Shown here piece by piece: positions 34,370 through 36,986 of a stretch of 64,000 nucleotides of DNA. Source of the stretch: Nitrososphaerota archaeon (GTDB taxonomy: Archaea; Thermoproteota; Nitrososphaeria_A; Caldarchaeales; JAVZCJ01); the NCBI GenBank assembly GCA_038874475.1, contig JAVZCJ010000002.1, positions 12,964-76,963 of the forward strand. Reading direction: 5' to 3'. Within the stretch, counting starts at the first letter, position 1. Each line of letters begins with the position of its first letter. Under the pieces are notes generated by a model that was not told the origin of the DNA, did not search any database, and was given only the letters and a program-made list of their open reading frames with translations. Both the position numbers and the translations under genes were made by a program.

Positions 34370-34639
34370 ATGCCAATTAGTAATAAGATCCATAATCTTA
34401 AAATAGCAATAAAAGGTTTTCTTTTAGGTGCTACTAATATATATGACATGATTCGGTATTTAGAAAGAAAAAAATTATGCGCTGACTATATGCTTATGTT
34501 ATCTCTTATGGGAGATATGCTTGGATATCCTATTTCTTCATATTATCGACTTAAATTGCTTCCTTATTATATACCTAAAATTCAATCTTGGAAACAATAT
34601 TTTCTTAAAGAAAGAGATATAATTGAAAAATTAGAATAA
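34370..34639 (+). CDS. Small conserved hypothetical protein, paralogue 1 (MGDMLG-YY-LLPY family)
   Basis: 89 aa. Shares L.LSLMGDMLGYPISSYYRLKLLPYYIPKIQSWKQYFLKERD with the next ORF. Confidence 0.45.
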   Translation: MPISNKIHNLKIAIKGFLLGATNIYDMIRYLERKKLCADYMLMLSLMGDMLGYPISSYYRLKLLPYYIPKIQSWKQYFLKERDIIEKLE

Positions 34640-34699
34640 ATAATGAGAAAATTAGAAATATTTATAAGTTAATTAAGTTAATTTATAAAATAGATTTTT

Positions 34700-34981
34700 A
34701 TGGTTGAAAAGAAGGAAGAAAAGAAGGAAGGAGAAGTAAAAAAAGCAGTTAAAGGTTTAGTATACGGTATGGCTATGCATGGAATGGTTACTTATGCATT
34801 AAAAACAAGAATGCATTTAGAAAATCTTTTTATGTTAATAACTATGGGAGATATGCTTGGTGTCCCAGTGCTTCCACCTTATTATTCTTTAAGATTATTG
34901 CCATATGCCGTTCCACATATAAAAACTTGGAAAAGAACATTATTAAGAGAACGTGATGTTACAGACACTATTTTTGCATAG
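34700..34981 (+). CDS. Small conserved hypothetical protein, paralogue 2
   Basis: 93 aa. ITMGDMLGVPVLPPYYSLRLLPYAVPHIKTWKRTLLRERD is clearly paralogous to 34370..34639. Confidence 0.45.
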   Translation: MVEKKEEKKEGEVKKAVKGLVYGMAMHGMVTYALKTRMHLENLFMLITMGDMLGVPVLPPYYSLRLLPYAVPHIKTWKRTLLRERDVTDTIFA

Positions 34982-34993
34982 AGGTGCTACTAT

Positions 34994-35977
34994 TTGTCAA
35001 TAACTATATCTATTAAACAATATCTTAAATCTAATCCAAACATTAAATATATTTTATTTGGAGGAAAAGGTGGGTTAGGAAAAACAACTCTTTCTGCAGC
35101 AACTTCTTATTGGTTAGCAAAACAAGGGAAGAAAGTTGTAGTATTTTCAACAGACCCTCAAGCTAGTCTTACTGATATATTTGAAAGAAATATTTTTGGT
35201 AAAGGGGAAGTTGAAATTGCTCCAAACCTTTTTGCTTTAGAAATCGATGCTGATAAAAAAATAGAAATGTATCAAGAAGAAATTCGAAAAAAGATTATAG
35301 ATATGTATGGAGAAGTACCAAAAGAAGTAGATGATTATATTAAATCATGTGCAGCAGAACCAGCAATGGCTGAATCTGCAACTTTTGATGCTATGGTAGA
35401 ATTGATGACAAGTGGTGCATATGATTATTATATATTTGATATGATGCCACATGGGCATGCTATTCGTTTTTTAAGCATGGCAGAAGTTTTAGATACATGG
35501 GTTGATAAAATTGTTGAAACACGTAAAAAAGCTGATGAATATGGAGATGTAGCTTCAGTTCTTAGTGGAAAAGGGGGACTTGCTCAAGAAGATAAGATTT
35601 TAGAAGAATTAGAATTTATAAGGTCTAGATTAGATTTTGTTAGTAATATGATGAAAGATAAAGAACATACAGCATTCTTCTATGTTTTAATACCAGAGCA
35701 AATGCCTATATTAGATACGAAGAAAGCTTTAGAAATATTTAGAGCATTTAATATTCCATTAAGCGGAATAATAATAAATCAAGTTTATCCAATTGAATTA
35801 TTAAATCAACCAAATGTCCCATCTCTTTTAAAAAATAAGATATTAATGCAACAAAAATACATGAAAATAATAAAGGAAGAATTTGGACCATTAATTAGAG
35901 GAGTGGTTCCTATGTTTGACCGTGAACCTAAAGGTCTTGAAATGATATCCAAAGTAGCAGAAACCCTTTTTGAATAA
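34994..35977 (+). CDS. ArsA/Get3-family P-loop ATPase, copy 1
   Basis: 327 aa. Deviant Walker A FGGKGGLGKTT, and the ArsA-family motifs STDPQASL, DMMPHGHAIRFL and NQV. No Get3 CxxC. Confidence 0.75.
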   Translation: MSITISIKQYLKSNPNIKYILFGGKGGLGKTTLSAATSYWLAKQGKKVVVFSTDPQASLTDIFERNIFGKGEVEIAPNLFALEIDADKKIEMYQEEIRKKIIDMYGEVPKEVDDYIKSCAAEPAMAESATFDAMVELMTSGAYDYYIFDMMPHGHAIRFLSMAEVLDTWVDKIVETRKKADEYGDVASVLSGKGGLAQEDKILEELEFIRSRLDFVSNMMKDKEHTAFFYVLIPEQMPILDTKKALEIFRAFNIPLSGIIINQVYPIELLNQPNVPSLLKNKILMQQKYMKIIKEEFGPLIRGVVPMFDREPKGLEMISKVAETLFE

Positions 35978-35990
35978 AAAGTGATTTAAC

Positions 35991-36986
35991 ATGAGTTTAA
36001 ATTTTAAAGAATTTGTTGCTTCAAAGCCTAATTTAAAATATTTATTCTTTGGTGGAAAAGGTGGAGTTGGAAAAACTGTTATTGCAGCTGGAACTGCATA
36101 TTATCTTGCTGAAAAATTAGGGAAAAAGACATTAATTTCTTCAACCAATCCAGTTCATAGTTTATCAAGTGCATTTGGACAAGATATATGGGGCAAAGGC
36201 ATACAGAAAATAAAAGATACTAAAAATTTGTATGCTATTGAAATAGATATTTCTGATACTATTAAAAGATATAAAGAAGAAATAAGAAATAAAATACTTA
36301 CATTCTTAAAATATGCGGATATTCCATTAGATCCTGAACCATTTATTGAAATTGCTACTACTAATCCAGCTTTTGAAGAATCAGCAATGTTTGATGATAT
36401 GATTAATCTTATGTTAAAAGAAGAATTTGATGTATATGTTTTTGATACTGCACCCGTTGCTCACACATATCGTTTATTGGGTATGTCAAAAGTTTATGAT
36501 CTTTGGTTACATAAAATGATTGAAAGTCGTAAAGAAGCATTATCACTTCGTGTTAAACTTTCATTTAGAAAAGAAAAAATAATGGAAGAAATTAAGAAAG
36601 ACCCGATGTTAACTAGTCTTTTAACAACGAGAGAACAAATAGAAAAAGGACGTAAATTATTAACTGATAATGAAAGAACAGCATTCTTTTTTGTTACATT
36701 ACCTCTTGCTCTTCCAATTGCAGTAATTGAAAGATTTATTGGATGGGTTAAAGCATTTGAAATACCAATAGGAGGGGTAATAGTAAATGAGGTTCTTCCT
36801 AAAGAAGAATTTGATTTAACAAATATTTCACCATACATAGCTAATAAGATTAAGGAGCAAGAGCATTATATAGAGACTATTCATAATAAATTCCCTGGGC
36901 TTGTTAGAGCTTATGTTCCACTTTATGAAACAGAAGTTACAGGTACAAATATGATAGCTCGTGTTGCTGAAACATTGGGTAAATAA
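35991..36986 (+). CDS. ArsA/Get3-family P-loop ATPase, copy 2
   Basis: 331 aa. FGGKGGVGKT, STNPVHSL, DTAPVAHTYRLL and NEV. Paralogous to copy 1. Confidence 0.75.
   Translation: MSLNFKEFVASKPNLKYLFFGGKGGVGKTVIAAGTAYYLAEKLGKKTLISSTNPVHSLSSAFGQDIWGKGIQKIKDTKNLYAIEIDISDTIKRYKEEIRNKILTFLKYADIPLDPEPFIEIATTNPAFEESAMFDDMINLMLKEEFDVYVFDTAPVAHTYRLLGMSKVYDLWLHKMIESRKEALSLRVKLSFRKEKIMEEIKKDPMLTSLLTTREQIEKGRKLLTDNERTAFFFVTLPLALPIAVIERFIGWVKAFEIPIGGVIVNEVLPKEEFDLTNISPYIANKIKEQEHYIETIHNKFPGLVRAYVPLYETEVTGTNMIARVAETLGK

Follow-up and report, generated by a model that had tools for sequence, protein, structure and literature searches.

In a 2010 SEED survey, Castillo and Saier reported that single-domain ArsA homologues of about 330 amino acids are, in 26 cases, encoded together with the transporter CstA and with a protein of about 90 amino acids called CstX (PMC2963123). 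A further protein of about 210 amino acids with a single transmembrane segment, CstY, was present in five archaea, adjacent pairs of ArsA homologues were found in the species abbreviated there as Par and Sth and paired CstX genes in Par and Tko (Thermococcus kodakarensis) (PMC2963123). The ArsA homologues, CstA and CstX have matching phylogenies, CstX never occurred without CstA and ars genes never occurred in the cst operons, and the authors suggested CstX to be the subunit through which the ArsA homologue energises CstA (PMC2963123). Here we analysed a stretch of 64,000 nucleotides from a Nitrososphaerota archaeon (GenBank assembly GCA_038874475.1, contig JAVZCJ010000002.1, positions 12,964 to 76,963), hereafter the window, in which two paralogous genes for small proteins (S1 and S2) and two paralogous genes for ATPases of the ArsA/Get3 family (A1 and A2) lie next to cstA and cstY. 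This locus is another instance of the CstA-CstX-CstY-ArsA-homologue cluster of Castillo and Saier, because sizes, order and content match: ATPases of about 330 amino acids, CstX of about 90, CstA, CstY of about 210 and no ars genes. The core finding was already published in the 2010 comparative genomics, to which the locus adds a member. New in this study are an aspartate to asparagine asymmetry between the two ATPases, the CCDC47-like fold of CstY, the recognition of the cory-CC-star proteins as a CstX branch and the finding that the duplications of the small protein and of the ATPase are uncoupled.

All positions given below are those of the window. S1 (CstX paralogue 1; 34370-34639, plus strand) encodes 89 amino acids and is a fast-evolving extra copy of the small helical protein, whereas S2 (CstX paralogue 2; 34700-34981, plus strand; 93 amino acids) is the strongly conserved copy. 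They are followed by A1 (34994-35977, plus strand; 327 amino acids with a TTG start) and A2 (35991-36986, plus strand; 331 amino acids). A preliminary description, made from the sequence alone, had pointed out these four co-directional genes with short spacers, and we find the spacers S1-S2, S2-A1 and A1-A2 to be 60, 12 and 13 bp. It also stated that a permease or an ArsD-like partner is missing. This is right for ArsB, Acr3 and arsD, but a CstA-family permease (37045-38703, minus strand; 552 amino acids; Pfam: PF02554, E-value 4.8e-121) is encoded 58 bp downstream of A2 in convergent orientation, and divergent from cstA, across a spacer of 100 bp, follows cstY (38804-39451, plus strand; 215 amino acids), whose product has an N-terminal transmembrane helix and a globular alpha/beta domain. 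S1-S2-A1-A2 is hence two-thirds of a six-gene cluster built around CstA. Exact copies of the window proteins have been deposited from a metagenome-assembled genome (MAG) named "Nitrososphaerota archaeon", where the spacing of the locus tags of S1 (QXY18_00595) and CstY (QXY18_00620) is consistent with six consecutive genes.

The gene neighbourhood was compared in two scans. The CstX-seeded scan used one genome per species and gave 80 loci, and the A2-seeded scan searched metagenomes with the A2 alignment as query. A locus was taken as complete if it had at least 2.5 kb of flank on both sides of the block, which applied to 40 CstX-seeded and 17 A2-seeded loci. The 80 loci belong to archaea (Bathyarchaeia, Nitrososphaeria, Methanomethylicia, Methanoperedens, Thermoplasmata and Korarchaeota-like Thermoproteota), including Asgard archaea (Thor-, Hermod-, Baldr- and Promethearchaeota), and to bacteria (Symbiobacteriaceae, Dormiibacterota, Terriglobia, Anaerolineae and a Firmicutes MAG). 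Three of the Symbiobacteriaceae loci (L069, L073 and L077) are arranged as in the window, and Symbiobacterium is one of the example organisms of the 2010 survey. By size, by position and by this common example, S1 and S2 would correspond to the CstX of that paper.

In essentially all of the 80 CstX-seeded loci an S2-type gene is directly followed by an A1-type and then by an A2-type gene. Clustering of the flanking open reading frames (ORFs) called cstA in 64 of the 80 loci, and in the complete loci it is always present, with 40 out of 40 in the CstX-seeded and 17 out of 17 in the A2-seeded scan (57 out of 57 in total). CstY is encoded in 48 of the 80 loci and in 36 of the 40 complete CstX-seeded ones. 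The position of cstA depends on the lineage: it is upstream and co-directional in Methanoperedens, Asgard archaea, the Korarchaeota-like lineage and some bacteria, downstream and co-directional in Nitrososphaerales, and downstream and convergent in Bathyarchaeia and in the window. Position and strand vary by lineage yet the adjacency is kept, which argues for a functional linkage. Among the A2-seeded hits, the ATPases scoring above 300 bits (L083-L142) have CstX directly before A1 wherever the contig extends that far; stand-alone ArsA/Get3 genes (L143-L150 and L154-L157) score lower and have neither CstX nor CstA beside them. Conservation of the neighbourhood had been suggested as a check in the preliminary description, and the outcome is strongly positive, since the CstX-A1-A2 order and CstA are kept across the sampled archaea and bacteria. 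We conclude firmly that S1, S2, A1 and A2 function together with CstA and CstY.

Two CstX-type ORFs are found in 25 of the 40 complete genome loci and one in the other 15, whereas all loci of the two-ATPase branch carry both ATPases. Some Asgard loci even have three CstX genes in tandem and a fourth one nearby. The duplication of CstX is thus lineage-specific and uncoupled from the ATPase pair. The preliminary description had seen a joint duplication of both pairs, and this did not hold up; the loci with one CstX and two ATPases also speak against a one-to-one pairing of small proteins and ATPases.

Besides cstY, there are further genes which accompany the cluster in other lineages. A thioredoxin-like protein of about 130 amino acids with a CxxC-type motif (e.g. 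FAHCQHCM) is encoded in 13 loci (L005, L008, L015, L021, L026-L028, L033, L035, L036, L048, L075 and L076), and in three proteins (P0137, P0155 and P0194) CstX is preceded by a fused region of similar appearance. A soluble protein of about 165-220 amino acids, which has a conserved Cys-His at the C-terminus or close to it, adjoins cstA or cstY in 17 loci (L037, L042, L046, L049-L052, L054-L056, L058, L061, L064-L066, L070 and L077), and an eighteenth member of this cluster (L068) looks spurious. In Asgard loci a protein of 119 amino acids with a GCPSC motif is encoded after A2. Neither the Cys-His nor the GCPSC protein has a Pfam match, and none of the three kinds of accessory gene is present in the window.

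S1 and S2 share 39% identity over 77 residues (E-value 1e-20), as expected for the paralogues they had been taken to be, and the coding status of both is beyond doubt. With an E-value of at most 0.001, S2 has 1389 relatives in a large protein collection, so the concern of the preliminary description that the small ORFs might lack homologues can be set aside. The relatives among the matches listed are 60-96% identical to S2, all of them with the precomputed Pfam annotation PF25952, and those with names come from Bathyarchaeia, Sulfolobales, Nitrososphaeria, Micrarchaeia, Anaerolineae and Rokubacteria. A CstX profile search of a library clustered at 50% identified 419 representatives. S1 diverges much faster than S2, with nine close relatives in a word-indexed search, and S1-like ORFs are located directly upstream of S2 in many related loci and missing from others. 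The exact match of S1 (P0270), named "hypothetical protein" and coming from the Nitrososphaerota archaeon MAG, carries PF25952, whereas S1 and S2 themselves had no match in the copy of Pfam that we searched. PF25952 is not mentioned in the literature searched.

The invariant columns of the CstX family are G..GDMLG.P....YY.L..LPY..P....WK......RD, which in S2 appear as GDMLGxPxLPPYYxLRLLPYxxPxIxxWKxxLxRERD. The motif quoted for the small proteins in the preliminary description is this same core; it was said to match nothing recognised, a statement now superseded by PF25952, by CstX and by the cory-CC-star branch treated below. The family core has no conserved Cys or His, and the C-termini of S1 (...EKLE) and S2 (...DTIFA) have no Cys-Cys. 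The AlphaFold2 model of S2 is all-helical with a mean predicted local distance difference test (pLDDT) of 69 and consists of a helix at residues 5-52, a Pro-rich loop (LGVPVLPPY) and two helices at 62-70 and 73-92. The long helix is rich in Met (7 out of 32 residues), the hydrophobic stretch stops about 20-30 residues short of the C-terminus and the last helix bears a nearly invariant RER(D) motif. As the peak hydropathy over 19 residues is 1.41, CstX has no clear transmembrane segment, and with this value and the pLDDT of 69 we do not support a classification as a clear transmembrane or tail-anchored protein. Apart from the separate genes, one protein of 163 amino acids (P0013) has two CstX domains fused in tandem. 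In two more sequences the C-terminus of CstA runs into CstX (P0122) and CstX runs into an ArsA-like N-terminus (P0224); these are probably read-through or frameshift artefacts which mirror the gene order.

The tails of CstX vary by branch: the archaeal type has none, other bacterial proteins have His-rich tails such as HEHHLHGL and ...EHDYHLHGL (P0147, P0150, P0154 and similar), and a third branch ends in Cys-Cys. The last belongs to a group of loci with a single ATPase (L151-L153 and L158-L162), in which the ATPase keeps the catalytic Asp and is accompanied by a divergent small protein; cstA precedes where the contig is long enough (L151 and L161). NCBI calls exact copies of these small proteins "cory-CC-star protein" in Sporosarcina and Virgibacillus. 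In a profile-profile comparison with hhalign, the Cys-Cys-tailed branch aligns to archaeal CstX over 74 columns with 95.6% probability and an E-value of 1.2e-8. In hmmscan with the cory-CC-star model (NF041419), S1 and S2 are hit with E-values of 7e-8 and 1e-4 (32.3 and 21.9 bits, cut-off 80). By sequence comparison, the cory-CC-star proteins are therefore identified as the Cys-Cys-tailed CstX branch that is paired with a single ATPase.

Aligned over the full length, A1 and A2 share 38% identity (E-value 9e-71). Both contain one ArsA_ATPase domain (Pfam: PF02374; E-values 1.2e-71 and 1.3e-65) and both pass the TIGR00345 model GET3_arsA_TRC40 with 236.5 and 229 bits (cut-off 135), which bears out the family assignment made in the preliminary description, as does its remark that the two ATPases are separate ORFs and not a fused pseudo-dimer. 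Their scores with the models for BagA and BagB, 53 and 39 bits, are far below the cut-offs of these models (400 and 521). The nearest solved structures are the archaeal Get3 homologues 3UG6 of M. jannaschii (E-value 5e-63) and 3ZQ6 of M. thermautotrophicus (E-value 2e-54). A2 has no cysteine and A1 has one, and none is aligned to the CDFC of M. jannaschii Get3, so the CxxC of Get3 is indeed lacking.

The two ATPases differ in their catalytic motifs. In 70 A1-type sequences (69 orthologues and the window copy) GKGGLGKTT, FSTDPQASL and FDMxPxGH are conserved. A2 keeps the P-loop and has SxNPVHSL as Switch I, with Asn at the position where Get3 and A1 carry Asp; it aligns to the Asp of STDPAHS in M. 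jannaschii Get3. This Asn (N53) is invariant in 12 diverse archaeal and bacterial orthologues, and its conservation is 90% or more in a set of 66 A2-type sequences (65 orthologues and the window copy). A2 has also lost the Gly-His of DTAPTGH, while A1 retains the Switch II His. In Get3, the Switch I Asp (D57 in yeast) is required for hydrolysis, and the D57N variant binds ATP without hydrolysing it. From these motifs we predict that A1 is the catalytically competent subunit and that A2 binds nucleotide with impaired hydrolysis. The conserved Asn in place of the catalytic Asp hence predicts an A1-A2 heterodimer with one hydrolytic site in A1 and one degenerate nucleotide site in A2. The Asp retained in the single-ATPase branch would fit a division of labour following duplication.

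Furthermore, the mean column identity of the helical subdomain is similar to that of the nucleotide-binding core (0.68 vs 0.73 in A1 and 0.71 vs 0.71 in A2), which, as measured inside the A1 and A2 families only, would fit one fixed partner better than a range of clients. The hydrophobic fraction of the helical subdomain is 0.40-0.43 in A1 and A2 and 0.41 in M. jannaschii Get3, with 7-8 Met against 13.

CstY has a single N-terminal hydrophobic helix (hydropathy 2.73 at residues 4-22). Its AlphaFold2 model has a pLDDT of 90.6 and a predicted template modelling score of 0.83. The top Foldseek matches of this model in the PDB, and the only strong ones, are 7tm3_4, 9i78_4 and 6w6l_7 (E-values 1.6e-8, 7.6e-8 and 1.1e-5; template modelling scores 0.73, 0.72 and 0.59), all of which are chains of ribosome-translocon structures. 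The chain length of 9i78_4 agrees with the CCDC47 residues modelled in its paper, and 7tm3_4 and 6w6l_7 are presumably CCDC47 chains, too. After these, TtfA (trehalose monomycolate transport factor A of mycobacteria) ranks next with an E-value of 1e-3. CCDC47 is a subunit of the eukaryotic multipass translocon (PMC12572126). Its Pfam family (PF07946) matches 50 out of 53 CstY relatives weakly at an E-value of at most 0.01, the best being 1.6e-7, and the CstY of the window reaches 15.7 bits, which is under the Pfam cut-off of 27.7. The CstY profile had no match among the PDB sequences; the CCDC47 chains are reached by fold comparison alone. Judged by its model, CstY has the CCDC47 fold with a membrane anchor and a globular domain. 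The model finishes with one helix (197-214) right behind the globular domain and has no C-terminal latch helices. In the CCDC47 literature that we examined, archaea are mentioned with regard to Oxa1-family insertases and not to CCDC47.

We tentatively favour the reading that A1 and A2 form an ArsA-like heterodimer which is tethered to CstA via CstX and whose ATP cycle drives or gates uptake, and give it a probability of roughly 45%. S1, S2, A1 and A2 would then be the cytoplasmic part of the six-gene CstA module. A1 and A2 would pair as a Get3/ArsA-type heterodimer, like the halves of ArsA as separate chains, and hydrolysis would take place at A1 only, since A2 has kept its P-loop and has Asn for the catalytic Asp. 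CstX would hold the dimer at CstA, with CstY as a membrane-anchored accessory subunit, and the ATP-driven closing and opening of the dimer would be passed on through CstX to drive or gate CstA. We infer the heterodimer, all of these physical contacts and the coupling to transport. The 60-96% identity of CstX between distant lineages would be expected of a small subunit held between several partners. ArsA-ArsB serves as the template for this reading. Also in favour are two parallels in E. coli: CstA-dependent pyruvate uptake requires the small protein YbdD (PMC5847655), and in the gene group btsT-yjiX-yjiA a CstA paralogue is linked with both a small protein and a P-loop GTPase.

Several points weigh against this reading. 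As proton symporters or pyruvate importers, the characterised transporters CstA and BtsT work without an ATPase. ArsA drives efflux and needs no linker protein to bind ArsB. Among solved structures, A1 and A2 are nearest to archaeal Get3 homologues and not to pump subunits. The model of CstX, which has no convincing transmembrane segment, is only moderately confident. Moreover, the modelled likeness of CstY to a eukaryotic membrane-protein biogenesis factor points towards assembly and not energisation. No experimental work on the cluster was found in the literature searched.

The last but one of these points leads to the chief alternative, in which the client and chaperone idea of the preliminary description survives in a form that has to include CstA. 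Here the ATPases would build the CstA-CstX complex and not run it: A1/A2 would act in a Get3-type targeting or assembly pathway, shielding the Met-rich helix of CstX or segments of CstA and delivering them to the membrane, CstY would be the receptor or scaffold and hydrolysis would free the cargo. We regard this as possible and less probable than ATP coupling. The archaeal Get3 homologues 3UG6 and 3ZQ6, to which A1 and A2 are closest, bind tail-anchored proteins. The Met content of the long CstX helix, and its hydrophobic stretch ending ahead of the C-terminus, would suit such a cargo, but a tail anchor would be expected to have a higher hydropathy than CstX, whose C-terminal tail is conserved and carries many charges. 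That CstX is so extremely conserved suits a permanent subunit more than a passing client, and a machinery devoted to one transporter would be unusual. The fold of CstY is that of a multipass translocon subunit, yet the latch helices which bind CCDC47 to the ribosome are missing. The RER(D) motif of CstX recalls the RERR motif of Get2, which binds Get3 (PMC8530227). However, this is a short motif: the CstX family profile found nothing significant in the PDB (the best hit being VAMP2 with an E-value of 0.26) and no Get2 chain at an E-value of up to 10, and the C-terminal 32 residues of CstX had no PDB match at that threshold either. Given these null searches, the likeness remains a lead at the level of the motif.

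A broader version of this alternative, which we consider rather doubtful, is a prokaryotic module for membrane-protein assembly, in which a Get3-like heterodimer, a CCDC47-like CstY and the RER-bearing CstX would build or remodel the CstA complex and might be related to ancestors of parts of the eukaryotic GET and PAT systems. The loci of the Asgard lineages Thor- and Hermodarchaeota hold the full gene set. None of the searched papers which mention CstA and carbon starvation protein also mentions Get3.

It is improbable that the ATPases and CstX are a thiol, metal or selenium accessory to CstA, in which the small protein and a SIMIBI NTPase would deliver or remove a ligand, comparable to ArsD-ArsA or COG0523. 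The Cys-Cys and His-rich tails of other CstX branches fit such a role, as do the thioredoxin-like, Cys-His-ending and CPSC proteins of related loci. In E. coli K-12, the CstA-family genes lie in btsT-yjiX-yjiA (L081, 4586000-4594000) and cstA-ybdD (L082, 627000-634000). YbdD and YjiX end in Arg-Cys-Cys and match the NCBIfam selenoprotein family KCU-star under its cut-off, their relatives include selenoproteins ending in Cys-Sec, and the gene after yjiX, yjiA, encodes a P-loop GTPase of COG0523. In the window, however, S1 and S2 are tail-less, the CstX core is free of conserved Cys and His, there is at most one cysteine in the ATPases and no redox accessory gene is found. A homology of CstX to YbdD and YjiX (Pfam: PF04328, DUF466), which would carry the parallel over, was rejected on present evidence. 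With hhalign probabilities of 1.3% and 1.6% it is unsupported, the alignments cover only FFRER/LLRER or the RCC tail and S1 and S2 do not match PF04328; this comparison is low in sensitivity because it included only two DUF466 sequences.

The original proposal of the preliminary description, a self-contained chaperone system with two ATPases for two small-protein clients and no transporter, is very unlikely. It is true that the four genes are co-directional and tightly spaced and that the small protein always adjoins the ATPases, but cstA is present in all 57 loci with enough flank, 15 of the 40 complete loci have one CstX for two ATPases and CstX was never found without CstA in the 2010 survey (PMC2963123). 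A role as arsenite or antimonite resistance ATPase, which the preliminary description had itself set aside in favour of a dedicated system, is excluded for practical purposes: the family-level ArsA model matches and sequences in the 90% cluster of A1 carry the Joint Genome Institute label "arsenite-transporting ATPase", but the ArsA equivalog model (TIGR04291) gives A1 and A2 only 112.8 and 104.5 bits, far under its cut-off of 650, both are unfused and without metalloid-binding cysteines, the ORFs and Pfam matches of the window include no arsR, arsB, arsD or acr3 near the module and ars and cst genes were never in one operon in the 2010 survey (PMC2963123). Labels of this kind are misleading for the A1/A2 branch.

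The other neighbours of the cluster in the window, which has a G+C content of about 27%, include a luciferase-like oxidoreductase, a HAD hydrolase, zinc-ribbon proteins and an Mrp-type ATPase. Directly past cstY there are two tandem genes (39464-40453 and 40454-41416, both on the minus strand) whose products have a zinc-ribbon-like CxxC...CxxC at the N-terminus and hydrophobic segments at the C-terminus. They are probably distant paralogues, as a weak cross-match to one orthologue indicates, and among the fetched loci they were seen solely in the closest relative (L001). The Mrp/NBP35-type P-loop ATPase (41503-42342, minus strand) is a distant relative of A1 (E-value 1e-7) and lies outside the conserved cluster. 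Further away, an island with a G+C content of 0.34-0.43 at 12240-18966, compared with about 0.27 for most of the window, encodes a protein of 1648 amino acids with a signal-peptide-like N-terminus and then a protein of 602 amino acids with a C-terminal hydrophobic segment. These genes may have been acquired from elsewhere, or an unusual constraint may act on their composition. In the whole window (1-64000) there are no tRNA genes and no Rfam families at the gathering threshold.

CstA-family transporters are widespread and tied to the scavenging of carbon (pyruvate and peptides), and their genes are accompanied by those for small proteins and P-loop NTPases. The cluster is a conserved form of this association that ranges over Bathyarchaeia, Nitrososphaeria, Methanoperedens, Thermoplasmata, Asgard archaea and several bacterial phyla. 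Should the ATPase pair energise or gate CstA, there would be a second example, next to ArsAB, in which an ArsA-type ATPase converts or controls a carrier. If an assembly role is true, Get3-like and CCDC47-like proteins would be linked in prokaryotes, which bears on the origin of the eukaryotic membrane-protein biogenesis factors.

Compared with the systems described so far, the closest is the cluster of Castillo and Saier. Their study was purely comparative and did not report the Asp-to-Asn asymmetry, the CCDC47-like fold or the Cys-Cys-tailed branch. Among the searched papers, no later use of CstX in the sense of 2010 was found, and the other uses of the name concern spider toxins and sympathectomy. 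The cory-CC-star proteins (NF041419) are homologous to S1 and S2 and their gene lies between cstA and an ArsA-like ATPase gene, but they have a terminal Cys-Cys and one ATPase, whereas the window has two ATPases and CstX proteins without Cys-Cys.

The E. coli pairs cstA-ybdD and btsT-yjiX-yjiA resemble the window in having a CstA-family transporter with an adjoining small protein, and YbdD, encoded beside cstA, is needed for CstA-dependent pyruvate uptake (PMC5847655). Behind btsT-yjiX the gene for a P-loop GTPase follows, where the window has ArsA/Get3 ATPases, and the Arg-Cys-Cys tail of YbdD and YjiX is similar to the tail of the Cys-Cys-tailed CstX branch and not to that of the window CstX.

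ArsA-ArsB is the precedent for an ArsA-type ATPase which acts on a carrier that is also able to work alone (PMC2963123). In ArsA, the two homologous halves are fused (about 580 amino acids), whereas in the window they are separate ORFs with a gap of 13 bp, and the metalloid-binding cysteines and the ars regulation are both missing from the window ATPases. ArsB is unrelated to CstA, whose known members import rather than export, and the window module always has a small protein as a candidate linker, for which ArsA and ArsB have no counterpart.

Get3/TRC40 proteins have the same length and domain layout as A1 and A2, which pass the cut-off of their common model. Get3 differs from them in its CxxC zinc clasp, in being a homodimer and in its stand-alone gene, whereas A1 and A2 are an obligate pair of paralogues, invariably linked to CstA and CstX, of which A1 keeps the catalytic Asp of Get3 and A2 does not. 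CCDC47, as part of the eukaryotic PAT complex and multipass translocon, has the anchor and the globular fold in common with CstY. Its C-terminal coiled-coil latch helices, which dock on the ribosome and Sec61, have no equivalent in the 215 amino acids of CstY, and its partner is the translocon where that of CstY would be a transporter cluster. Finally, the mycobacterial BagA and BagB (Rv3679 and Rv3680) are encoded by adjacent Get3/ArsA-like genes and are reported to protect against the toxicity of glycerol and nitric oxide (PMC10597346). An association of BagA and BagB with CstA or CstX was not seen, although no search aimed at it was made. Like A1 and A2 they are two adjacent Get3/ArsA-like ATPases, but only distant relatives of them. 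The BagA and BagB proteins interact with each other.

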